Assembly: GCA_045580715.1 (NCBI GenBank)
Contig: JAZNOH010000085.1
Span: forward strand, 33,585 to 97,584
Direction: 5' to 3'
From: Clostridia bacterium
GTDB taxonomy: Bacteria; Bacillota; Clostridia; UBA1381
Length of the DNA: 64,000 nt
Shown here piece by piece: positions 2,773 through 26,492 of the stretch. Under the pieces are notes generated by a model that was given only the letters and a program-made list of their open reading frames with translations, made no database searches and was not told the DNA's origin. A program made the translations under genes and the position numbers. Within the stretch, counting starts at the first letter, position 1; every line of letters begins with the position of its first letter.

Positions 2773-5700
2773 ATGAGTTTATCATTCGAAGACTCTCTGA
2801 AAAATAGTGTTACGAACAATATTGCAACTACGGAAAACGAAATTATTGAAGCGGTTGCCGTAATGAGCGTAGACAATACAAGTATAGATAGTCCTTCAAT
2901 TATGACGCTTGATGAAAGTTATGGAATAGCCGCATATTCTGGCGATGATGGTAGTTGGCAGCAGCATGCTGATTATGTATATTATTCAACCTTCTCTGAT
3001 GACAACATTTCTACCATTAGCGATACAAAAGATATTAATCTTGATGGAAAACAGTTTAACATAACTCAAGAAGAAAACTCTCAGTACATACCATTTGAAA
3101 TGTCGAGATACTATGACGGCTATGATTTGGTTAACGCTGTTATTTCTATTCATTATGAGACCAAGAGTGGACGACACGGTGCTTCCAAACCGATAAATGT
3201 AACCTTTAATAATGAAAAGATTAGATTTGGTTGGTTGGTTGATGCTGGTGCTACTCTTGATGCTGGAAAGCTTAAATTTGAAATTCATGCATACGGTACT
3301 GTAACGGGCAATGATGGAGTTTCTTTAAGTTATGTTTGGAAGAGTAAGAGCAATGATACTTTGAATGTACTTCAATCATTGTGCGATTGTGAAGAAGTGG
3401 TCAATAATATAGACGATACTTGGATACAGGAGTTGGTTACAGATGTTGCCGAAAAGGTTGCAGATGAGATTAAAAATGTTGCCGTTGGCGAACAAGTAAC
3501 GGCTGCTGAAAATGCTGCTGCTTCTGCTAAACAATCTGCTAACGATGCAAAACAATATGCAGAAAATGCGTCTACGGCTGCTACCGAAGAAGTTAATAAG
3601 GTTCTTGAAAATTACGCTACAACGAGTTATGTTGATGAAGCAGTTGCTGGTGTTGATGTTACGGAACAGTTGGCGAGTTATGTACGAACATCTGATTTGG
3701 AAACCAATTATTATACAAAGACTGATACTGAGCAAAGAATTTCAAGCGCCCTTGAAACTTACGCTACTACCCAATATGTAGACAACGCTATTGCAGATGC
3801 CGACATTTCTGGCAAGCTTGAAAATTATTATACAAAAGATGAGACTTATAACAAAACAGAAATAGATACTGCTCTTGCTAATGTAAGTGTTGATTTAACT
3901 GGTTATGCTACAGAAAAATATGTAGACGACAAGGCTGCCACCCTCTCTTCTTCTATTTCTACTAATACAGAGAATATTTCTTCTTTGGGCACGACGGTTA
4001 GCAACTTACAAAGCACTGTTAACTCTATAGACACCTCTCCTCGTCTTACTTATGATGTAGAATATAATGATGCAGAAAATCCTGATGTTGGAGAGAATGT
4101 TTTTGTTTTCTATGAAATTGAAAATGAAGGCGCGGAAAATGAAGTAAAAGAAGCTAAAAAGAAGTTCACTATTGTTGGTGGTTCAGGTGGAGGGGCTACA
4201 AGTAGTTCGTTGAAGATTGGCTATGTGACCACTTCTCCCCTTGTTGTTACAACAAACGACGAAGCAATTATTAAATATACTTTTTCTGGTACCGACTCTT
4301 CTGGTGATGCCGTGCCCGAAGGAACCGCGACTTGGAAAGTGGCTGGCAGAATTGTTGCAACAAACACCGCTCTTGCTGGTGAGAACTCTTTCGATGTTAC
4401 GGAATATCTTTCTGTTGGCACTCAAAAGGTTAACTTGTCTATTGTTGACGAAGCTGGTAGTTTGGTCACAAAAACTTGGACTGTGCAAAAAATTGATGTA
4501 AGACTTGAATCTACCTTTAATGACAAGTTGACTTATCCTATTGGAACCATATCTTTTGATTACACGCCTTATGGTGCTATTTCAAAGGTTGTTCATTTTG
4601 TTCTTGATGGTGTAGAAATTGGTACTGTTACCACCTCTTCTTCGGGTATCCCAATGGCATATGAAATTCCCACACAAGAACATGGTGCCCACTTGTTAGA
4701 GGTCTATATGACTGCTGAAATTAATGGTAATGCGATTGAGTCAAATCATATCGTGAAAGATATTATCTGGTATGATTCTGCGAGTGCCATTCCTGTAATT
4801 AGTACAGTATATCAGAATTTTACTGCAAGACAGTATGATGCCACTAATATTGAATATACCGTATATGACCCCACCACGGAAACTCCCACCGTGGAAATTG
4901 CCATAGATGGAAATGTTGTATCGACACCTACGCTTGATAAGGCTACGAATGTGTATTCATTTAAGACGGATGTTGTTGGTGAACATACTATCACCATTAC
5001 TTGCGGTGAGACTGTCAAGACCCTGATTGCCAATATTACAAAACTTGATATAAATATTACTCCCGTTACTGCTGGTTTAGTATTTGATTTTAATCCTTCT
5101 GGTAAATCAAATAATGATGCTGACAGAGTTTGGTCTAATGACACAGTTGCTATGACTGTATCTGATAACTTTGACTGGGTTAATGGTGGTTATCAGTATG
5201 ACGAAAATGGAGACCAGTATTTCTGTATTAAGGCTGGCACTTTTGCAACCATTGATTATCAATTGTTCGCAGACGACGCTAAGAAGAATGGTAAAGAAAT
5301 GAAGTTGGTGTTTAAGACAACCAATGTTGCAAAACCCGACGCCACATTCCTGTCTTGTATGGACAACACAACTGATTCTGACCATATTGGTATTCAGATG
5401 GATGTTCACGAAGCATTCATTTATGGTCAAGCTGGTAAGTTAGACCTCTCTTATTCTGAAGAAGATATTATTGAATTCGAGTTTAATATCTCTAAGAATA
5501 CAGAAGCAATTCCTATGGTAATGGGTTATGAGGATGGTGTTTCTACTCGTCCTATGGTCTACGACGACTCTTACAACTTTACACAGAATACACCTAAAGT
5601 TATATCTTTGGGTTCTGATTACTGTGATTTACATATATACAGGTTTAAGGTTTATAATACCTCTCTTACCGACAGAGGCATTTTGAATAACTTTATTGCC

Positions 5701-8700
5701 GATGCTCGTAATGCAGAGGAAATGGTTTCTCGTTATGACCGAAATCAGATTTATGACGAAAACCAGAATCTTGACCCCGATGTTCTCGCTGAGAAATGTC
5801 CTTGGTTGAGAGTGTATAAGATTTCTGCCCCCTACTTTACGAACAATAAGAGCGACAAAGTGCCGAATACTACCATTCAGCAGATTTATAAGAATGGCGA
5901 TGTTGTTTTGGACAACTGGACTTGTTACAATGCTCAGCATAGCGGACAAGGTACCTCCTCTAACAACTACGGTGCTGCTGGTAGAAATCTTGACTTTATT
6001 ATGAATAAGTCTGGCATTGACGGTGTAAACCCCTATTTCAAGTTGGGTGACGGAACCGAAGCAAGTGAGATTACTCTGACACGCACCTCTGTTCCCGTGG
6101 CTTATTTAAATGCAAAAGTCAATATTGCTTCGTCTAATAACTTGACAAATGCAATGTTGGCTAATAGATATAATGAGTTTAACCCCTACAACAGACCTTT
6201 TGTGCGTGACGAGGGCGTTGATACGAGCTTCATTAAAGATACTATGGAATTCCATAACTGTGTAATCTTTATTCAAGAAACTAATGAGGATTTGTCTACT
6301 CATAGAGAGTTTGCCGATAATGATTGGCATTTCTATGCAATCGGTAACATAGGCGACTCAAAGAAAACTGATAATACTCGTTTAACAGATATGAACGATA
6401 AGTATGAATGTTGTGTTGAAATTATGGATGTTGAGTTGCCACTGTCTGACTTTCCCATTGATACAATGTATAATGCAATGGGTTACAAGGAAGATGAGAC
6501 TACGCATGAAAAGAAATATATTTGGGTAAAGAATGAAAATCTAGGAATTCTTTATGAAAAGATTGACGGTGAGTATGTCTTAACTACAGATACCGAGGTT
6601 GATTTAACTAAAACTTATTATGTGGATATTCTTGAACACGATGATTTTAGCGAAGATTATACTTATGGTTGGCGTTATCTTTATGAAGGTGATGACGAAG
6701 AGGAAAATGCTGAAGTATTTGATTACTGTAAACAAAAGTGGATTGAACTTTATAGATTTATAACTACTTCTACCGATGAAGAGTTCAAGAATAGATTTGA
6801 TGAGTATTTTGTAAAAGACACTGCTCTCTACTATTACTTGTTTACCACAAGATATTGTATGGCGGATAACAGAGCCAAGAATTGTTTTATACATTATAGC
6901 AAGACTGGAGAAGTTGATGCTGAAGGTAATCCTATTCGCAAGTGGGATTTATCTTGGGGTTATGATATGGATACCAGCTTGGGTCTTAACAATTACGGTA
7001 AACAAGTCTATCGTTATGGTCTCGAAGATACCGATGTTGACGAAAAGGGCGAGGAAGTGTTTAGAGAATCTGATAGTACATTCTTCTGTCGTGTAAGAGA
7101 CCTCTTCCCTGCCGAACTCAAAGCAATGTACAACACTCTTGAGTCTAAGAATGCTTGGCATGCTGAAAGTTTTATCAACAAAGCAGATGAATGGCAGAGT
7201 CAATTCCCCGAAGAATTATGGCGAGTAGATATTGAGCGTAAGTACATTCGTACCTATAACGGCTCCTTTATTAATGGTAAAGGTGATGCTCAGTTCCTTG
7301 TAAATATGGCGAATGGTAAGATGAAATACCATCGTAGACAATGGGAGCGTAGCCAAGAAAAGTATATGGCTTCAAAATATCAATCTTCTATTGCTTCTTC
7401 TGACAACTCCGTATTTAGATGTAGTGTGCCCAATGGTGACTTGGTGGTTCAACCTAATTATAGATTAAAACTTACGCCTTATGCGTATATGTACTTGAAT
7501 GTTAAGTATGGCACACAAAATCCAATTCAATTAAGAGCAGAACCCAATATCGAATACGAAATCCCATTTGATGGCGAAAAAGCTGATATTGTAGATGTTT
7601 ACAGTTCTTCTCTTATTCAAGACTTTGGTGATTTGTCATCTTGTTATGTGGCGACTGCTGATACAAGTAAGGCAAGCAAGGTTAAGAGGTTGATTTTTGG
7701 TAATAGCACTGAAGGCTATGATAACCCCAACTTTACTACTTTGACAACTGGTGCAAACTATCTGTTAGAGGAATTAAATATCGAGAATGTTTCTGGATTA
7801 ACACAGTCTTTGAATTTAAGCGCATTGAATAATTTGCGTGAGTTATATGCTCATGGTTCTAACATTGGCGGTGTTACATTTGCCGATGGTGGCAAGATTG
7901 AAATTGCCGAATTGCCCGCAATTAACGCTCTTACCATGAAGAATTTGATGTATCTTGCAACACTTGACATTACGGACTTGAGTAAGCTAACTACGCTCAC
8001 AGTTGAGAATTGTGACACCGTTGACTTACTTACTATTTTAAATAATGCGCCCAACATTAATCGTGTAAGGATTGTTGGCATTGATTGGTCGCTTGAAGAT
8101 ACCGCTCTCTTAGAGAGATTATATGCAATGAAGGGTATTGATAGGAATGGTTATAATGCCGACCAGTCTGTATTAACTGGCAGGGTTCATGTGCCTGTTA
8201 TTAGACAGCAGCAATTGTATGATTATCAGAATGCATGGTCTGATTTGGAGATTGTGGCAGATACCATTATTGAACAGTTCGCAGTAACATTTATGAATGC
8301 TGATGGCTCTGTTTTGGAAGTTCAATATGTTGATAAGGGTGAGGATGCTGTTGACCCAACTACAAGGACAGATAACCCTCTCTCCCCCACTATTGCAAGT
8401 ACGGTTGAATATGATTTTACTTTTGCTGGTTGGGATTCTGCTTTGACGGATGTATTCAGTGAAAGAACTATCACGGCTATTTATACTGAGTCGCTTAGAA
8501 GTTATACAATTAAGTATGTTTCCAAGGGTATTACGATGCAAGAGACTACTGGTTTATATGGCGAAAATGTGCCTTATACTGGCGTAAGTCCTACTTATAC
8601 TGCGGAAGAAACTGGTTATGTCTACTATCTCTTTAATCGTTGGGATAAGTCTGGGTTTATCGACGGAGACAAGACTGTTAACGCAATATTCGATAAATTC

Positions 8701-9921
8701 ACATATACTGCAACCGCTTTTGACGGCAAAGAATTAGCAGACCTCTCCCCCGTTGAGATTTATGCCATGAATAAACTTGGGCTTGCCGAAAGTATCGTTA
8801 CAGATAAAGACCCATACACGATTGTTGTAGGTAACGATGTTGATTATGATGATATTGAATCCGAGTTGTTAATTTCTGAAAAGACATATTTCAATGGCTC
8901 TAATTATGTTGATACTGGTATTCAGTTATTTGATACGGATAAAGATTTTGTACTGGCTATGGACTATGAGTTTTTAGATGGCAATACTACAAATGGCGTT
9001 CTTGCACAGTGTTTCCAAGCAAATGGAACCAATGGCTTTAAACTTTGGTATAGCGGCGGTGTAAGGTTTACTTGGGGTACTTCATATGATGACATTGTTG
9101 ATATCAATAAGCGTGAGATTTTGGTTATTCGTCATGTGAAGGGTGATAACAACTTGTATATCTACAAATCTAATCTTGATGGCGATGAAGTTTTGTCTAC
9201 TGAATTGACAAGAACTAAGTCTACCGTTGGTACTGGCACCCTTGTATTTGGTTGTGCAAGAGCGGATGATGGAATCTACGAAAACTATGGCATTGGCAAC
9301 ATTAACTGGGCTAAGGTATGGTATGCAGACCTTGGGGAAGATGTTTGTAAAAACCTTGCTATGTGGACGCACGAATCTATTACATTGGAGGCTTGTGGAT
9401 TTAGGAAGTATTATTTGAGCGACAATACATCTAAGAGATGTTCATTTAGTTTACTCGCTTCTCACTTATTAGGTAGAACTAAGAGATGGAATGCGTCTAA
9501 TACTAACGCTGGTGGCTGGGCTAATTCCGAATTAAACAATGCTTTGAATACAAGATTGTATAATGCTATGCCCACTCAGATTAGAGAACTGCTTAAGAAA
9601 GTGATTGTTTATTCTTCGGTTGGTCAGATGTCTACCGAGTTAAGTTCCTCTGATTGTTATATTACAATCCCAGCGCTTATTGAAGTAGACCCAACTCAAA
9701 CATCGGAACCTTACAACAGTGAGGGTACTTCTATCTCTTATTTGAGCACAAATGATTCGAGAAAACGAGCATTTGATGGTGGAGATTACAATGCTTATTG
9801 GTTGCGTACACCTAATGTTTCTTATGCGAATTATATTTGGCGTATAGAAACCGATGGTCAAACACAAGGAATTACCAATGCCACGAGTAGCTTGGGTGTA
9901 CTTATTGAAATATCGTTTTAA
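2773..9921 (+). CDS. giant multidomain tail/receptor-binding protein (BppU-like N-term, coiled coil, Ig-like region, CotH-like domain, LRR, Listeria-Bacteroides repeats, LamG-like, DUF6273-like C-term)
   Basis: Uninterrupted 2382-aa ORF with RBS AAAGGAGGA. CotH-like motifs ADNRAKNCFIHY and RKWDLSWGYDMDTSLG (about 6865-6990). LRR-like LxxLxL run (about 7600-8100). Two FAVTF/YTIKY...GW repeats (about 8270-8700). C-terminal GGWANSELN...YWLRTP motif. Confidence 0.85.
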   Translation: MSLSFEDSLKNSVTNNIATTENEIIEAVAVMSVDNTSIDSPSIMTLDESYGIAAYSGDDGSWQQHADYVYYSTFSDDNISTISDTKDINLDGKQFNITQEENSQYIPFEMSRYYDGYDLVNAVISIHYETKSGRHGASKPINVTFNNEKIRFGWLVDAGATLDAGKLKFEIHAYGTVTGNDGVSLSYVWKSKSNDTLNVLQSLCDCEEVVNNIDDTWIQELVTDVAEKVADEIKNVAVGEQVTAAENAAASAKQSANDAKQYAENASTAATEEVNKVLENYATTSYVDEAVAGVDVTEQLASYVRTSDLETNYYTKTDTEQRISSALETYATTQYVDNAIADADISGKLENYYTKDETYNKTEIDTALANVSVDLTGYATEKYVDDKAATLSSSISTNTENISSLGTTVSNLQSTVNSIDTSPRLTYDVEYNDAENPDVGENVFVFYEIENEGAENEVKEAKKKFTIVGGSGGGATSSSLKIGYVTTSPLVVTTNDEAIIKYTFSGTDSSGDAVPEGTATWKVAGRIVATNTALAGENSFDVTEYLSVGTQKVNLSIVDEAGSLVTKTWTVQKIDVRLESTFNDKLTYPIGTISFDYTPYGAISKVVHFVLDGVEIGTVTTSSSGIPMAYEIPTQEHGAHLLEVYMTAEINGNAIESNHIVKDIIWYDSASAIPVISTVYQNFTARQYDATNIEYTVYDPTTETPTVEIAIDGNVVSTPTLDKATNVYSFKTDVVGEHTITITCGETVKTLIANITKLDINITPVTAGLVFDFNPSGKSNNDADRVWSNDTVAMTVSDNFDWVNGGYQYDENGDQYFCIKAGTFATIDYQLFADDAKKNGKEMKLVFKTTNVAKPDATFLSCMDNTTDSDHIGIQMDVHEAFIYGQAGKLDLSYSEEDIIEFEFNISKNTEAIPMVMGYEDGVSTRPMVYDDSYNFTQNTPKVISLGSDYCDLHIYRFKVYNTSLTDRGILNNFIADARNAEEMVSRYDRNQIYDENQNLDPDVLAEKCPWLRVYKISAPYFTNNKSDKVPNTTIQQIYKNGDVVLDNWTCYNAQHSGQGTSSNNYGAAGRNLDFIMNKSGIDGVNPYFKLGDGTEASEITLTRTSVPVAYLNAKVNIASSNNLTNAMLANRYNEFNPYNRPFVRDEGVDTSFIKDTMEFHNCVIFIQETNEDLSTHREFADNDWHFYAIGNIGDSKKTDNTRLTDMNDKYECCVEIMDVELPLSDFPIDTMYNAMGYKEDETTHEKKYIWVKNENLGILYEKIDGEYVLTTDTEVDLTKTYYVDILEHDDFSEDYTYGWRYLYEGDDEEENAEVFDYCKQKWIELYRFITTSTDEEFKNRFDEYFVKDTALYYYLFTTRYCMADNRAKNCFIHYSKTGEVDAEGNPIRKWDLSWGYDMDTSLGLNNYGKQVYRYGLEDTDVDEKGEEVFRESDSTFFCRVRDLFPAELKAMYNTLESKNAWHAESFINKADEWQSQFPEELWRVDIERKYIRTYNGSFINGKGDAQFLVNMANGKMKYHRRQWERSQEKYMASKYQSSIASSDNSVFRCSVPNGDLVVQPNYRLKLTPYAYMYLNVKYGTQNPIQLRAEPNIEYEIPFDGEKADIVDVYSSSLIQDFGDLSSCYVATADTSKASKVKRLIFGNSTEGYDNPNFTTLTTGANYLLEELNIENVSGLTQSLNLSALNNLRELYAHGSNIGGVTFADGGKIEIAELPAINALTMKNLMYLATLDITDLSKLTTLTVENCDTVDLLTILNNAPNINRVRIVGIDWSLEDTALLERLYAMKGIDRNGYNADQSVLTGRVHVPVIRQQQLYDYQNAWSDLEIVADTIIEQFAVTFMNADGSVLEVQYVDKGEDAVDPTTRTDNPLSPTIASTVEYDFTFAGWDSALTDVFSERTITAIYTESLRSYTIKYVSKGITMQETTGLYGENVPYTGVSPTYTAEETGYVYYLFNRWDKSGFIDGDKTVNAIFDKFTYTATAFDGKELADLSPVEIYAMNKLGLAESIVTDKDPYTIVVGNDVDYDDIESELLISEKTYFNGSNYVDTGIQLFDTDKDFVLAMDYEFLDGNTTNGVLAQCFQANGTNGFKLWYSGGVRFTWGTSYDDIVDINKREILVIRHVKGDNNLYIYKSNLDGDEVLSTELTRTKSTVGTGTLVFGCARADDGIYENYGIGNINWAKVWYADLGEDVCKNLAMWTHESITLEACGFRKYYLSDNTSKRCSFSLLASHLLGRTKRWNASNTNAGGWANSELNNALNTRLYNAMPTQIRELLKKVIVYSSVGQMSTELSSSDCYITIPALIEVDPTQTSEPYNSEGTSISYLSTNDSRKRAFDGGDYNAYWLRTPNVSYANYIWRIETDGQTQGITNATSSLGVLIEISF

Positions 9922-15640: not shown

Positions 15641-18262
15641 ATGGCAGATAAAAAGGTATTTACAGATGAAAGTTTGGCTACTTTTGTTGATGAGATAAAG
15701 GCATATACAGACAATGCCGTTTCAGGCAAAGCTGACGAACACACCCACCCATACCTATCTTCTGGCACCAAGTACGCACTTTCAGACAGCGTTGGTGGAA
15801 ATGCGTTAATATCAAATAAAATGTCAGTTATAGGCAGAGTCTCTTCAAGTAATACCATTTTCCAAGCCGCTGCCGCTGCTGCGGTTAGAACTGAAGAAAT
15901 ATGGTTTGGTGGCTCAGATGGAGTTGCAGGTGGTATGCCAGCAGCTTATTGTATTACAGTTATTAAAAAAGGTGATAACCACAGAACCCTTTTAGATTGC
16001 TATCACTTAAATACTGGAAATCATTATATTAATGGTTGCATGGACACTAGGGATACAACTACATATCCATGGACGGGCTGGACTAAGCAGCCTACCGCAT
16101 CCGACCTCTCAACATTGAATGCTACAGTAGCAGGAAAAGCAAATGCTTCTCACACTCACGACGACAGGTATTACACAGAGACAGAAATTGATACCAAACT
16201 TTCAGAAATAAACGCATCTATTTCTGAAAAAGCCAATACTTCGCATACTCATACAGTTGCCAATATTTCTGACTTAACTGCAACTGCCACTGAATTAAAT
16301 TATGTTAGTGGCGTTGACAGCAATATTCAGACGCAGTTAGACGATAAACCCAACACCTCTGACCTTGGTTTTGTAAGAGTGGTATCTTGTTCTTCGAGTG
16401 ATGGAATTGCCTATACAGGAACGACCGATGGTATAACTGCTTTAACTGCGGGATTAACCATAGTCTTTATTCCCAATAAAACAAGCGCAAGCAAATCTCC
16501 TACACTAGATATTAACGGACTTGGTGCGAAGGGCATCAGAAGAAGATTGAGTCACCTTTCAACCACTGCACAATCGGGATACGCAAATACTTGGCTTTTT
16601 GCAAACAAGCCATTTTTGCTTATGTATGATGGAACTCAATGGATAGTTGACGGTTTAACAAAGCCGTCTGCAGTCGATTTATATGGAACGCCCGCTTTGG
16701 CAACCAAAGCGAATCAAGACGGTAATGGAAATGTTATTGTCGATACTTATGCTACAAAAACTGAATTAGAGGCTGTAAGTGATGCACTCGAAAACGAGAC
16801 TCTCCCAGATTATTGGGAAACCTATTTACCCGATAAAATAGCAGCTATTAAGGCTCTACAGGCAGCGGGAGGGAAAAATTGTTTTTCATTTATAGTTATG
16901 TCGGATATTCACTACTCATCAAATCTTGGCAAACGCTCTCCCGCCATAGCCAAAAGAATTATGGATGAATGCGACATTCGTTATGCTCTTGTGCTTGGAG
17001 ACTCGCAAGGTAGCGGTTCGCTTGCGTCCCTAGAGTTCACACAGGAGGAGTGGAATAACATTCACACTATGTTCAAACCTATTGCTGATAGGGCTTTATT
17101 CCAGTGTGGAAACCACGATGGTTCGTGGGGTGCCGCACTTTCCGATGGCACTACTTATCCGTACAATTTTACACCAGAGGAGCTTTATACGCTTGTGCAA
17201 AACAAAACATACGCCCATCATGATGTTGTGACTGATGAAAGTGGTACGGGCTATTATATTGACGATGTACCCCATAAAGTGCGCTATATCTTATTAAACA
17301 CAACTTGTAATGAGTATGTCGAGAATGCTGATGGTAGCGCTAAATATAATAACATGACTCATGCTCGATACACTCAGAGCCAGTACGATATGTTAATTGA
17401 GGCTCTGACAACCGTAAAATCTGGCTGGTCGGTTGTTGTAGCGTCTCATGTGCCTCCCAATGATGCATATGCCGATTATTTTGGTGGCGACACTACTGAG
17501 GGTGACGCTGTTATTATGCGCGGATTATTGAAGGCATATAAGAACAAGACTTCGTACACGGCGAGCTGGGATGGGACGGCTGGCGGTACAAGTTATACAA
17601 ACCTTTTTGACCCTTCTGGGGCGGGTTTTTATAACGACGGGACAAATATTTATTCGAACTGGATTCCTTATACTTCGGGCACTACCTATCATATAAAGGG
17701 GTGGGAAGATAACAATGCATCATGGGCTAACCCTTATAAAATGCATTTCTCCGACACTGCCGACGCTGCTTATAGTGGCGGTACAGGTCTGATGTATTGT
17801 TCCAATGCCAATGTAACGGCTAAAACTACAGCAGACTACGATAGTAGTGTTAGACTTATCAGACATGACACCGATTATTACACATACATTCAATTTTATT
17901 TTGCTTCTCAGACAAATGTTGACAACATAATTATTACGGCTAATGAACCCATCGCAGAAGGCGGCGCAGGTTACGATGCCGTTTCTGTTGATGTTGATTT
18001 CTCTGACGCAAATGGTGACCTTATAAGTTATTTTGCGGGGCATATGCATAAAGACTATCTTTATTCCAATACCGACTACGGCTTTGGCTTTAATATTATT
18101 ACCACTGCTTGTGATGCAGATTTGAATACTAGCGTCGCACATACTGAGGGTACAGTAACCGAACAATCTTTCGATGTTTTTACGGTGAATCGTAAAACGG
18201 GCACTATTTATGCCACTAAGATTGGTGCGGGCGAAGACCGCGAAATTGATATTAACGCTTAA
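15641..18262 (+). CDS. tail fibre protein fused to C-terminal calcineurin-like metallophosphoesterase domain
   Basis: 873 aa with RBS AAAGGAGAAA. Fibre N-terminus MADKKVFTDESLATFVDEIK plus HxH motifs and PTLDINGLGAKGI. All five MPE motifs occur in order: VMSDIHY, LVLGDS, GNHD, SHVPP, GHMHKD. Confidence 0.85.
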   Translation: MADKKVFTDESLATFVDEIKAYTDNAVSGKADEHTHPYLSSGTKYALSDSVGGNALISNKMSVIGRVSSSNTIFQAAAAAAVRTEEIWFGGSDGVAGGMPAAYCITVIKKGDNHRTLLDCYHLNTGNHYINGCMDTRDTTTYPWTGWTKQPTASDLSTLNATVAGKANASHTHDDRYYTETEIDTKLSEINASISEKANTSHTHTVANISDLTATATELNYVSGVDSNIQTQLDDKPNTSDLGFVRVVSCSSSDGIAYTGTTDGITALTAGLTIVFIPNKTSASKSPTLDINGLGAKGIRRRLSHLSTTAQSGYANTWLFANKPFLLMYDGTQWIVDGLTKPSAVDLYGTPALATKANQDGNGNVIVDTYATKTELEAVSDALENETLPDYWETYLPDKIAAIKALQAAGGKNCFSFIVMSDIHYSSNLGKRSPAIAKRIMDECDIRYALVLGDSQGSGSLASLEFTQEEWNNIHTMFKPIADRALFQCGNHDGSWGAALSDGTTYPYNFTPEELYTLVQNKTYAHHDVVTDESGTGYYIDDVPHKVRYILLNTTCNEYVENADGSAKYNNMTHARYTQSQYDMLIEALTTVKSGWSVVVASHVPPNDAYADYFGGDTTEGDAVIMRGLLKAYKNKTSYTASWDGTAGGTSYTNLFDPSGAGFYNDGTNIYSNWIPYTSGTTYHIKGWEDNNASWANPYKMHFSDTADAAYSGGTGLMYCSNANVTAKTTADYDSSVRLIRHDTDYYTYIQFYFASQTNVDNIIITANEPIAEGGAGYDAVSVDVDFSDANGDLISYFAGHMHKDYLYSNTDYGFGFNIITTACDADLNTSVAHTEGTVTEQSFDVFTVNRKTGTIYATKIGAGEDREIDINA

Positions 18263-22279: not shown

Positions 22280-23803
22280 ATGGCAGCACCAAGCGGAATT
22301 GTTTGGGGTTCGATTGTTGGTGGTTATGGACGAATAGGAATTTATGTCAAACTTACTAACACAAACACACAAACAACAAGACATACAGAAATTTGGTTTT
22401 GGAGTAAGTATTCGGTAGACGATTCTGCAAATACATTTTATTACAATGATAATGCAACAACCGCTACCACTTCTAAAGGAGCTGTAAATATCAATACAAC
22501 CGTGGCTTCGGGTAGTGGATGGTCTACTTCTAACCAAGTAAAATTAAAAGAATACGATTATACATTTACGAGAGGAACAAGTTCTTCTAAGCGTTATGTA
22601 GCTGCTAAACTCACAAATGTTGATAGAGTTGGCGGTACGATGTCGGTTAGCACAAGCTACACCATCCCCGCTTTAGCAAGTTATACCGTTAAATATAGCG
22701 CTAACGGTGGTAGTGGAGCACCTTCTTCTCAGACGAAATATTACGGCAAGACTTTAACTTTGTCGAGCACAAAACCTTCACGAACTGGGCATACATTTAA
22801 AGGCTGGGCTACATCTGCAAGTGGCAGCGTGGCTTATGCTTCGGGGGCAAGCTATACGGCAAATGCCTCTATAACATTGTATGCAGTTTGGCAAGCAAAT
22901 ACTTATACGGTTAAGTACAATGCTAATGGTGGCACAGGAGCACCGAGTTCTCAAACGAAGACTTATGGGGTTGCATTAACATTGTCTTCAACAAAGCCAA
23001 CAAGAGCCTCTGTTGATAGCGGCGATGGAGTTTTAACTACATACACATTTAAAGGTTGGGCTACTTCTGCTAACTCGTCTACAGTTGCATATGCTGCAGG
23101 AGCGAAATATACAGCCAATGCTTCTGTCACATTATACGCAGTATGGAGTACAAAGACCACAGTTACAGAATATGATGTTGTATACAATACAAATGGTGGT
23201 TCAAATGTTAGCCCTCAGGTTAAAACAAAGGGAGTGGCACTTACCTTAAGAAGCACTATTCCTACTAAAAATGGATATACATTTAAAGGTTGGGGGTTGT
23301 CTGAAGATGCTACAACAGTTGCATATGCTGCTGGAGCAAGTTATACAACCGATGCTGACATTATTTTATATGCTATTTGGACTCCTTGGACACACATAGT
23401 TCAGTTTAATGTAAATGGTGGCACTGGCACCGTTCCATCAAGCTTTACTAAAACAACAGATGTAGATGTGACGATTCCAGAAGGAAATATTTCAAAGGCG
23501 AATTGTGTATTTAAGTGTTGGTCTACAAAAGCAAGTGGTTCTGGTGGTACTAACTATTATATTGGCGACGCATACGAAGCTACAAAAAATGGTGGCACAG
23601 TAACTTTATATGCCATTTGGAAAGAAAGAAAGGTACTGATATATAAAGCTGACAAGAGTTGTGAAGCCGTCGAATTTATTGAGAGCGATGAAATACTTGG
23701 GTTTGAAAATACAGGTATGATATATGCACCAGAATTTATAGAAGATGGTAGTTTGATTTTAGGCGAAACAAGCTTCCACTTCGGAGAATTAGTTGAAAGA
23801 TAA
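22280..23803 (+). CDS. tail protein with about five Listeria-Bacteroides (InlB B-type) repeats
   Basis: 507 aa with RBS GGAGGTGA. Repeats of YTVKY.ANGG.GAPSSQTK.YG..LTLSSTKP.R.G.TFKGWATSA....AYA.GA.YTANAS.TLYAVW. Confidence 0.8.
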   Translation: MAAPSGIVWGSIVGGYGRIGIYVKLTNTNTQTTRHTEIWFWSKYSVDDSANTFYYNDNATTATTSKGAVNINTTVASGSGWSTSNQVKLKEYDYTFTRGTSSSKRYVAAKLTNVDRVGGTMSVSTSYTIPALASYTVKYSANGGSGAPSSQTKYYGKTLTLSSTKPSRTGHTFKGWATSASGSVAYASGASYTANASITLYAVWQANTYTVKYNANGGTGAPSSQTKTYGVALTLSSTKPTRASVDSGDGVLTTYTFKGWATSANSSTVAYAAGAKYTANASVTLYAVWSTKTTVTEYDVVYNTNGGSNVSPQVKTKGVALTLRSTIPTKNGYTFKGWGLSEDATTVAYAAGASYTTDADIILYAIWTPWTHIVQFNVNGGTGTVPSSFTKTTDVDVTIPEGNISKANCVFKCWSTKASGSGGTNYYIGDAYEATKNGGTVTLYAIWKERKVLIYKADKSCEAVEFIESDEILGFENTGMIYAPEFIEDGSLILGETSFHFGELVER

Positions 23804-25058: not shown

Positions 25059-26492
25059 ATGATGCGTATGACTACTTTTGACAGAGAGAAGAAGGTCAGA
25101 AGAGCGTTTGACACTAGTAAGGTATTAAGAACGGCTGCCTATATTCGGGTGTCGAGCGACGAGCAGGTTAAGCATGGCTTCTCGATTGAGGCGCAGAAAG
25201 AGGGTTTGCAGAAATACGCCGAAGAACGAGGTTATAGGATTGTAGAATGGTACATTGATGAAGGTAAGTCTGCTCGTGGTAAAACTACGAAAAGGAAAGA
25301 ATATTTAAGACTTATCGAAGATGCTAAAAGAGGCAAATTTGAAATGATTATATTCAAATGTTTGGACAGATGGTTTAGGAATATAAGTGAGTATTACAAG
25401 GCTCAATCTGTTTTGGATGAAAAGGGTATTAACTGGGAATGTAGCGAAGAAGACTTTGATACAACCACTCGTGATGGTCGTTGGAAACTTCATATTTACC
25501 TCATGCTTGCACAAGATGAAGCGGACAAAACAAGTGAGCGTATCAATTATGTATTCGCACATAAAATTCAAAACAGAGAAGCTATATCTGGTTCCCAACC
25601 ATATGGCTTCAAAGTAAAAGAGATAGACGGTTTTAAAAGGGTTGTTAAAGACGAAAGTGTGTCTTGTATTGTTGATGATGTTTTTGATAACTTTGAACTT
25701 TTCAATTCTAAGAGAGCAACACTTTATTTCATACAAGACAAATACGATATTAAAGTGGAATACAAGTTAATAGGTCATATATTAACTAATCCTTATTATT
25801 ATGGTCATTATCGTGGTGTAGATGATTATATATGGGGTGGTTCTTATATTACAAAAGAACGCTACGACAAAATTCAGAAAATGTTAAAGAAAAATGTCAA
25901 AGCTCGTAAAAATAAAAAGAACCAAGATTATATTTTTAGCGGATTATTAGTATGCAGTATTTGTGGTTGCAAACTTTCGGCTCATTGTACCGACCTTCCT
26001 TTAGCAGATGGTAGCAAAAAAACTTATTTATTTTACAGATGCAGCAGGGCTGCTATGGCTAACAAATGTACTTCAAGGGGAACATTTAGTGAGATTAAGT
26101 TAGAGCAAAAACTAATACAGTCAATAGAAGAAGAAATTGAGGATTATATTTGCGAATATGAATTGGATGTCAAAAAAGAAAAGAAACCCAAAGTTGATAT
26201 TAAAAGTGTCAAAGAAGAGATACAACGGTTAAATGTTTCTTGGAGGAAGGGTCGTATGGAAGAATCGGAATATGATTATGAGTTTGAAAGATTGCAAAAG
26301 AAATTAGAAAAGGCACAAGAGGAGATTCCAGAAAAACACGATTTAACTCCTTTGTATGATTTCTTAAATAGTGGCTGGAAAGATATTTATGACACCTTAA
26401 CTTCTGTTGAGAAGAGGGCTTTGTGGCGCTCGGTAATTGACATAATAGAAGTTGATGTGTTGAATAAGGAATTTAAGATTAAGTTTATATAA
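25059..26492 (+). CDS. large serine recombinase (integrase)
   Basis: AAYIRVSSDEQVKHGFSIEAQ catalytic-serine motif. Resolvase domain, recombinase domain, Zn-ribbon CSICGCKL...YRCSRAAMANKC and a C-terminal coiled coil. The ATG at 25068 has the better spacing from AAAGGG. Confidence 0.9.
   Translation: MMRMTTFDREKKVRRAFDTSKVLRTAAYIRVSSDEQVKHGFSIEAQKEGLQKYAEERGYRIVEWYIDEGKSARGKTTKRKEYLRLIEDAKRGKFEMIIFKCLDRWFRNISEYYKAQSVLDEKGINWECSEEDFDTTTRDGRWKLHIYLMLAQDEADKTSERINYVFAHKIQNREAISGSQPYGFKVKEIDGFKRVVKDESVSCIVDDVFDNFELFNSKRATLYFIQDKYDIKVEYKLIGHILTNPYYYGHYRGVDDYIWGGSYITKERYDKIQKMLKKNVKARKNKKNQDYIFSGLLVCSICGCKLSAHCTDLPLADGSKKTYLFYRCSRAAMANKCTSRGTFSEIKLEQKLIQSIEEEIEDYICEYELDVKKEKKPKVDIKSVKEEIQRLNVSWRKGRMEESEYDYEFERLQKKLEKAQEEIPEKHDLTPLYDFLNSGWKDIYDTLTSVEKRALWRSVIDIIEVDVLNKEFKIKFI

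Follow-up and report, generated by a model that had tools for sequence, protein, structure and literature searches.

A giant modular protein, very probably a tail fibre of a gut Clostridia phage, is built around a probable, divergent CotH-type kinase fold

The gene at positions 2773 to 9921 of a 64,000-nt stretch of contig JAZNOH010000085.1 (hereafter the window), from the genome of a Clostridia bacterium (GCA_045580715.1), encodes a protein of 2,382 residues whose central domain is most probably a divergent CotH-type kinase fold. This giant protein, with the CotH-like domain in its core, is very probably a modular tail fibre or adhesin; the phage would be large, temperate and siphovirus-like, with gut Clostridia as hosts. 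The conserved catalytic-type residues of the core incline us, with some reserve, towards a working phosphotransferase or nucleotide/metal-binding enzyme as opposed to a dead scaffold. The gene and the features on which the argument rests are:

2773–9921, + strand: whole gene, giant tail-fibre-type adhesin, a single uninterrupted open reading frame (ORF) of 2,382 aa
5785–7407 (aa 1005–1545), + strand: CotH-like atypical kinase-fold domain, from Pfam, hhalign and Foldseek searches of BFVD
5947–5961, + strand: N-lobe motif Q1059-G-T-S-S1063, of which Q, G, T and S1063 are the same in all 222 sequences
6865–6882, + strand: catalytic-loop motif D1365-N-R-A-K1369-N1370, placed by hhalign opposite B. 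cereus D223-x4-N228
6964–6972, + strand: metal-binding-type motif D1398-M-D1400 (Y-D-x-D), from a gapless match of YDMDTSLG to CotH WDYDATWG

The reading frame is intact in related loci

A frame of 2,382 codons in DNA of 37–39% G+C is not a product of chance. As the initial annotation had stated, it is uninterrupted, and all of the peptides quoted there (HSGQGTSSNNYGAAGRNLDF, ADNRAKNCFIHY, RKWDLSWGYDMDTSLG and GGWANSELN...YWLRTP) were located in it. The initial annotation had also raised the alternative that the ORF is an assembly or annotation artefact joining several genes. The sole point in favour of an artefact is the source of the DNA: the 64-kb window is part of a 101.5-kb contig that belongs to a fragmented metagenome-assembled genome (MAG) of 251 contigs. 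This explanation fails because about 70 of 80 related, independent IMG/VR loci, and also 33 genome loci, have the same frame open at full length (2,260–2,490 aa). The ORF is moreover collinear with a 2,245-aa Hankyphage gene of an isolate genome, and 2,246 long homologues are present in a 90%-identity protein collection. The probability of an artefact is negligible.

The central domain is probably a divergent CotH-type kinase fold

The initial annotation placed a CotH-like region in the middle of the protein. Its location and the fold and profile signals for it were borne out, but the sequence itself stays under the Pfam threshold: the CotH profile (PF08757) gave 16.6 bits on the excised region (aa 1259–1484, profile positions 84–290) against a gathering threshold of 23.8 bits. 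On the full 2,382-aa protein the profile found no match, and on the family consensus it reached 17.0 bits. Three homologues that are 73–75% identical here (P0106, P0115 and P0120) pass the threshold with 24.8–26.5 bits, and precomputed PF08757 matches exist on several further homologues.

The phage family was compared by hhalign with a reference set of CotH domains, 25 cellular sequences taken from Bacillota genomes and aligned, the first of which is essentially the crystallised B. cereus CotH of 5JD9/5JDA. The E-values obtained were 3e-5 for the global alignment, 2.3e-3 for the local alignment and 3.9e-4 for the C-lobe alone. Structure models were built with AlphaFold2 (AF2) for the core (aa 760–1620) and the C-terminal part (aa 1561–2382), aligned with 20 non-redundant IMG/VR-derived homologues. 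The core model has a predicted local distance difference test score (pLDDT) of 81.2 and a predicted template modelling score (pTM) of 0.81, and the C-terminal model a pLDDT of 89.6. A Foldseek search of BFVD with the core model returned phage proteins aligned over 650–820 columns. Among them are entries named ‘Spore coat protein H kinase fold, TRANSFERASE’ (E 1e-33), ‘CotH kinase protein’ (E 4e-13) and ‘Spore coat protein’, an ‘Internalin-like protein’ and a ‘Spore coat protein-like protein’ of the uncultured phages cr52_1 and cr124_1, and gp353 of Bacillus phage G (E 7e-29, 823 columns). The same CotH call has been made for such proteins in four earlier reports, one of which names PDB 5JDA (PMC5758913; PMC8008677; bioRxiv 10.1101/2020.04.01.020958; bioRxiv 10.1101/2024.11.15.621889).

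The relationship to CotH, as judged by sequence, is remote, and in addition to the score below the Pfam cut-off several results speak against it. The N-lobe alone gave no significant hhalign match to CotH (E 0.028). HMMER searches of the PDB did not find 5JD9, whether the query was the sequence alone, a profile of the full-length family or one of the core. With a cellular CotH hidden Markov model (HMM) against phage ORFs, and the phage HMM against ORFs of CotH loci, true targets were not separated from decoys, which implies that profile-to-sequence sensitivity is too low at such a distance. In a Foldseek search of the PDB with the core model, the best 50 matches listed were all ConA-like jelly rolls (neurotoxin Hc-N and NTNH), so that 5JD9/5JDA were neither seen nor excluded. 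Taking both sides, the central domain is most probably a divergent CotH-type kinase fold.

In common with the CotH kinases (PF08757; B. cereus 5JD9/5JDA; B. subtilis), the phage domain has the kinase-like loop D-x4-N and the downstream D-x-D. It differs in being only 13–14% identical, in carrying a variable, poorly conserved insert of ~125 residues (aa ~1216–1340), and in having a Lys at D+4 where B. cereus CotH has a His. It is also embedded in a 2,382-aa virion-type protein, whereas CotH is a free coat protein of 360 aa.

Catalytic-type residues are invariant in the family

Two residues of B. subtilis CotH, D228 and D251, are essential to its activity (PMC7821199). They correspond in B. cereus to D223, within FDGFVHN, and D246, within WDYD, likewise 23 residues apart. 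In the hhalign alignment D1365 of the giant protein corresponds to B. cereus D223 and to B. subtilis D228. In a gapless motif match D1398 lies opposite B. cereus D246 (B. subtilis D251) and D1400 opposite D248; since hhalign places the YDMD motif two residues off the CotH WDYD, the assignment of D1398 rests on the gapless match. On these alignments, counterparts of both D228 and D251 appear to be present. The comparison with the CotH catalytic residues proposed in the initial annotation thus came out in its favour, with D1365/N1370 and D1398/D1400 as the corresponding pairs.

D1365, K1369, N1370, D1398 and D1400 are invariant in all 222 family members compared, down to 33% identity, and so are Q1059-G-T, S1063, K1115, K1197 and E1216. 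The D-x3-K-N and Y-D-x-D motifs are kept in the Hankyphage protein, phage G gp353 and a protein of phage NatCom_3357 (described below), all of which also have the QGTSS motif, which may be equivalent to an ‘RGNSS’-type motif of CotH. The invariance of the catalytic residues speaks for an active site that works, or failing that for a site binding nucleotide or metal. Invariance alone is no proof of catalysis, because many non-catalytic positions are equally invariant among the 222 sequences.

The core is shared by a large family of phage proteins

A CotH-like module on a phage tail had been described as unusual in the initial annotation. This view is not supported: a search with the core region yielded 1,040 representatives at 50% identity, 278 of them with E ≤ 1e-30 and almost all of the 1,040 lying within proteins of 2,000–3,000 aa, and the region occurs in more than 547 IMG/VR loci. 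It is found in the Hankyphage fibre and in gp353, and CotH domains in giant phage proteins had already been noted in the four reports cited above. Related contigs are 130–190 kb long. A near-identity DNA search of GenBank phage records gave no match; these records hold distant members only, namely NatCom_3357, the Hankyphages and phage G.

Over a broad set of relatives, the ConA-like plus CotH-like core is conserved at 55–59% identity, the distal modules at 31–42% and the N-terminus at 24–29%, the N-terminal region and the coiled coil being the least conserved parts. The tip varies among members and may be DUF6273, a BspA-type LRR_5 or, in Hankyphage, a C-type lectin diversified by a diversity-generating retroelement (DGR).

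The closest well-described system is Hankyphage (Bacteroides phage p00, BK010646), whose DGR variable protein or ‘tail fibre’ has 2,245 aa. This protein has been classified as category f1 (Wu et al. 2018, PMC5758913), PC_00012 (Roux et al., bioRxiv 10.1101/2020.04.01.020958) and domain group 3 (Macadangdang et al., bioRxiv 10.1101/2024.11.15.621889). It is similar in size to the giant protein, and its gene likewise follows the tail genes. Collinear BLASTP high-scoring segment pairs cover aa 536–1099 (E 1e-31) and 1330–1807 (E 5e-25), and the family HMM matches the Hankyphage protein with E 1e-29. Over ~1,300 residues the two share Ig-like, ConA-like, CotH-like, beta-sandwich and leucine-rich repeat (LRR) domains and the same QGTSS, D-x3-K-N and Y-D-x-D motifs. 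By size (at least ~2,000 aa) and by an alignable ConA/CotH/LRR core, the giant protein would accordingly be classed on sequence as a Hankyphage-type giant fibre. The Hankyphage protein ends in a C-type lectin with the DGR variable repeat (VR), with the template repeat (TR) and reverse transcriptase (RT) downstream, whereas the giant protein lacks such a C-terminal lectin and VR and ends, without a DGR, in beta repeats, a second ConA-like lectin and DUF6273. The two phages also differ in host (Bacteroides against, probably, Clostridia) and in genome size (43 kb against at least 101 kb, with relatives of 130–190 kb).

Phage G gp353 (2,055 aa; JN638751) has the same ConA-like and CotH-like core in the same order. 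BLASTP gave E 4e-11 for the C-lobe and 5e-6 for the ConA domain, and the family HMM 9.5e-28. It is only 22–24% identical to the giant protein and has other N- and C-terminal modules, and phage G, a jumbo myovirus with a genome of 498 kb, has a Bacillus-type host. Phage NatCom_3357 (Ca. Heliusvirales, PV036416) encodes a 1,673-aa protein with a CotH-like domain (PV036416.1, 3295–8316; ‘hypothetical protein’ in GenBank), which the family HMM matches with E 2e-79. Its CotH-like domain is followed by LRR and Flg_new-like repeats, and its gene lies between tail genes (Dit) and lysis genes. It is shorter than the giant protein and ends in a BspA-type LRR_5, and the phage has a genome of 47.6 kb.

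Modules outside the CotH-like domain

From the N-terminus, the order of modules is anchor, coiled coil, PKD/Ig-like, first ConA-like, CotH-like, beta-sandwich, LRR, two beta-rich repeats, second ConA-like (CBM40-like) and DUF6273:

2773–3462 (aa 1–230), + strand: N-terminal region, presumed virion anchor, anchoring being suggested by position alone
3463–4062 (aa 231–430), + strand: Ala-rich coiled-coil stalk with three YATxxYVD units, read from the sequence
4063–5067 (aa 431–765), + strand: Ig/PKD-like beta domains, from the family profile against collagenase PKD domains (E 6e-4)
5077–5655 (aa 769–961), + strand: ConA/LamG-like lectin jelly-roll 1, from AF2 (pLDDT ~90) and Foldseek
7408–7632 (aa 1546–1620), + strand: small beta-sandwich linker, all-beta in both AF2 models
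7654–8205 (aa 1628–1811), + strand: leucine-rich repeat domain, from fold and profile matches
8245–8703 (aa 1825–1977), + strand: two beta-rich repeats, Flg_new/InlB-B-repeat-like at motif level only, modelled by AF2 as two all-beta units
8812–9399 (aa 2014–2209), + strand: ConA/LamG-like lectin jelly-roll 2, from Foldseek
9448–9918 (aa 2226–2381), + strand: DUF6273 C-terminal domain, with the Pfam PF19789 match at aa 2237–2376 (nt 9481–9900)

The evidence supports the architecture of the initial annotation, a mosaic tail protein with a CotH-like kinase fold, LRRs, a lectin-like module and a DUF6273 end: CotH, LRR and ConA signals, with which the proposal stood or fell, exist at profile or fold level. 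Two parts of it were not upheld, namely a BppU-like N-terminus and Listeria-Bacteroides repeats, the latter not being demonstrable. Pfam and PHROG searches of aa 1–230 gave no match, nor did the BppU_N profile (PF10651) match the N-terminus, and BLASTP against the true BppU_N protein of the adjoining ORF (766–2016) gave E 0.23. The two segments read as Listeria-Bacteroides repeats are modelled as two all-beta units, but the Flg_new profile (PF09479) gave nothing on aa 1825–1977 at E ≤ 10. A six-frame Flg_new search of the contig found four true repeats in ORF 22280–23803 and none in the giant gene; BLASTP between those repeats and the beta-rich segment gave E 0.02–0.1, in register.

The coiled coil (aa 231–430), in which the repeated ATxxYVD units reported earlier were found again as the three YATxxYVD units, has a weak Alanine_zipper match and a weak match to the reovirus sigma-1 coiled coil. 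A related unit, ‘ATETYVDE’, recurs in neighbouring fibre genes. The Ig/PKD region is covered by phrog_14959 and phrog_24896 and aligns with Hankyphage residues 408–700. The first ConA-like domain, directly upstream of the CotH-like domain, was absent from the initial annotation. Its Foldseek matches include the clostridial neurotoxin Hc-N/NTNH lectin-like jelly rolls (E ~1e-8) and many phage ‘ConA-like lectin/glucanase’ proteins, and it is collinear with gp353 (E 5e-6) and with the Hankyphage protein.

An LRR solenoid at aa 1628–1811, as annotated, is confirmed at the level of the predicted fold. The model shows a regular short-strand repeat, with a Foldseek match to InlB (E 1.6e-5) and a profile match to the Listeria LRR protein 4ezg (E 0.002), and it aligns with the LRR of the Hankyphage protein; Pfam LRR_EndoS (E 0.0017) and other Pfam LRR models remained below threshold. 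The annotated LamG/ConA-like segment, now placed at about 8812–9399, was confirmed by fold only. Foldseek matched it to the CBM40 of the R. gnavus IT-sialidase (TM 0.63, root-mean-square deviation ~4.3 Å), the CBM40 of NanJ and NanA, legume lectins and agrin LamG, and Pfam Laminin_G_3 gave a weak match in 2 of 21 relatives. In the model, its closest fold is that of CBM40 sialic-acid-binding modules; its ligand is not inferable, because identity to CBM40 is only 12–15%.

DUF6273, proposed for the C-terminus from the start, is the only domain above the Pfam threshold in the full 2,382-aa protein (PF19789, 42.8–46 bits against a cut-off of 23.5; profile positions 22–164 of 172), and it was found in 20 of 21 relatives. 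A weak match to Lcl_C (DUF1566, C-type-lectin-like; E 0.036) was seen in the DUF6273 region of one relative, and one BFVD structural neighbour of the core is annotated as ‘DUF1566 domain-containing protein’. It may be that DUF6273 is related to the C-type-lectin-like tips on which DGRs act, but is not itself diversified.

The homology to the Hankyphage DGR target, together with the weak Lcl_C match, raises the question of whether the giant gene is itself diversified by a DGR. The neighbouring ORFs have no RT domain, no TR was found within 24 kb or anywhere in the assembly, and the sole RT of the MAG lies on another contig, in a 568-aa ORF. No VR/TR pair was found within 10 kb of the gene in any of 73 related loci. 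DGR target status was therefore rejected as very improbable. Since the homology to Hankyphage is collinear, yet RT, TR and VR are missing here and in the 73 relatives, the gene belongs to the Hankyphage-type fibre family as a member without a DGR, and is also related to gp353.

Genomic context and host

The neighbouring genes named in the following are:

1386–11612 of contig stretch 13600–33590, upstream of the window: tape measure gene, 3,408 aa
766–2016, + strand: 416-aa BppU_N protein, candidate baseplate adaptor (Pfam BppU_N 34.3 bits against a cut-off of 23.1; tail-fibre PHROG matches)
15641–18262, + strand: 873-aa fibre-type protein with a calcineurin-like metallophosphoesterase domain (Pfam Metallophos E 1e-4, aa 416–620)
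22280–23803, + strand: 507-aa ORF with four Listeria-Bacteroides (Flg_new) repeats (33.8–67.1 bits)

Upstream of the window the order is tyrosine integrase, tape measure protein, two small ORFs, a 1,803-aa ORF, holin and endolysin. The 1,803-aa ORF is Tal-like and has a weak tail/host-specificity PHROG match. Within the window, a 219-aa ORF, the BppU_N protein and a 233-aa ORF precede the giant gene, which is followed by at least five further fibre genes, a serine integrase and, on the opposite strand, a replication module. The downstream fibre genes carry PTR and Phage_fiber_2 repeats, one has the metallophosphoesterase domain and one the four true Flg_new repeats. Because tape measure, Tal-like and lysis genes lie upstream and the BppU_N and fibre genes surround it, the giant gene sits in the fibre island of a large, long-tailed, probably temperate phage.

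From the length of the tape measure protein (3,408 aa), an exceptionally long tail is to be expected. With the holin and endolysin genes separating the Tal-like gene from the fibre island, the lysis cassette precedes the genes of the giant protein and of every accessory fibre. Two integrases occur on this one phage contig: the tyrosine integrase (218–1252 of contig stretch 13600–33590), just upstream of the tape measure gene, and the large serine integrase (25059–26492 of the window). More Flg_new proteins are encoded on other contigs of the MAG.

In phage G, gp353 directly follows a metallophosphoesterase gene (gp352), while here the phosphoesterase-bearing fibre lies 5.7 kb downstream of the giant gene and shows no detectable similarity to gp352. 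A phmmer search of the 80 related loci with either phosphoesterase found nothing, and a motif scan found a metallophosphoesterase signature within ±10 kb of the giant gene in 3 of the 80. A pairing of CotH-like and phosphoesterase genes was thus not reproduced in this clade over that distance.

The isolate genomes with relatives are Ruminococcus spp., Clostridium transplantifaecale and Wujia, all Clostridia, and the closest relative (93% identical) is in a faecal MAG of a ‘Clostridia bacterium’. The host is therefore most likely a gut member of the Clostridia. Gene-bearing phage contigs of 130–160 kb have also been binned as Prevotella, Odoribacter, Paludibacteraceae, Elusimicrobiales, Gastranaerophilales, Bacilli and Clostridia. 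This taxonomic spread looks like mis-binning, not true host range.

Possible functions of the core

We hypothesize that the variable N-terminus and the coiled coil attach the fibre, probably as a trimer, to the baseplate, possibly via the neighbouring BppU_N protein. The conserved core, consisting of the ConA-like lectin and the CotH-like kinase fold, would follow, and the distal modules (LRR, beta repeats, the second ConA-like lectin and DUF6273) would contact glycans or proteins of the host surface. These distal modules are swapped between relatives. Phosphotransfer, if any, would most plausibly occur while fibres are assembled inside the infected cell, where ATP is abundant, much as the spore coat is assembled under the action of CotH, on which the assembly of CotB and CotG depends (PMC7821199). 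A more speculative alternative is that the core acts on phosphate-containing wall polymers at the host surface. The scarcity of extracellular ATP disfavours kinase action at the cell surface and makes phosphotransfer inside the infected cell the most economical proposal. That the core is an active virion-borne phosphotransferase, whether on fibre or baseplate proteins in the infected cell or on cell-wall polymers at the surface, is a proposal that we hold only tentatively and consider rather doubtful.

The broader proposal of a working enzyme or nucleotide/metal-binding site, which we favour by a cautious judgement, competes with one in which the core is a catalytically dead kinase fold serving as a rigid scaffold or ligand-binding module of a purely binding protein. 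The surroundings suit a dead fold: binding modules (two ConA-like domains, LRR and DUF6273) lie all around, an extracellular fibre has no obvious ATP supply, the sequence similarity to active CotH is marginal, and the invariance of many non-catalytic residues noted above fits it equally. Binding roles are established for Mucorales CotH proteins, and fungal CotH invasins have been proposed as adhesins. The cotH genes of Mucor have been described (PMC9973265). What such a fold explains less readily is the retention of D1365, K1369, N1370, D1398 and D1400 in 222 of 222 members, down to 33% identity, and of the catalytic residues in Hankyphage, gp353 and NatCom_3357. Pseudokinases usually lose at least one of such residues. 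A dead fold is a serious but lesser possibility. In the literature searched, no biochemical data on Ser/Thr kinase activity of the phage members were found. The position of the gene after the lysis cassette, atypical for a structural gene, counts against a tail fibre.

The protein might instead be mainly an adhesin for mucus or host glycans that holds the phage in gut mucus, and not a fibre binding a bacterial receptor. This idea was raised for the Hankyphage protein by Benler et al. (PMC6199706), and it would suit the fold of the second ConA-like domain, closest to the CBM40 of gut sialidases, and the presence of five or more other fibre genes, whose products could serve to bind the bacterium. 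With an identity of 12–15%, the CBM40 resemblance does not allow a ligand to be named, and the exchange of C-terminal modules between relatives fits the tracking of bacterial receptors. The Hankyphage homologue is DGR-diversified and is treated as a host-range fibre by its authors (PMC12135933); in the virion mass-spectrometry table of that work (table S6) the protein labels are ambiguous, and detection of the DGR target is not readable from it. A chiefly mucus-binding role seems improbable to us.

Implications

The initial annotation was right on architecture and wrong on rarity. The giant protein is a new member of a widespread family that has already been noted, its architecture being known from DGR and gut-virome surveys since 2017, and the gene alone adds little. 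What it contributes is a second, non-diversified context for the conserved core, which occurs here without a DGR, with a DUF6273 tip and in a phage with at least five other fibres; the function of the core is thus separable from hypervariation. The question that arises for the family as a whole is the role of the kinase-like site in giant fibres: more than 1,000 sequence clusters of such fibres share this invariant site as read from their sequences, among them those of Hankyphage, which is common worldwide, and of Bacillus phage G, which can be cultivated. If the core does prove to be an active phosphotransferase carried by the virion, it would be the first kinase-superfamily enzyme shown as a structural part of a phage tail, and such an enzyme would be present in thousands of gut phages, Hankyphage included.

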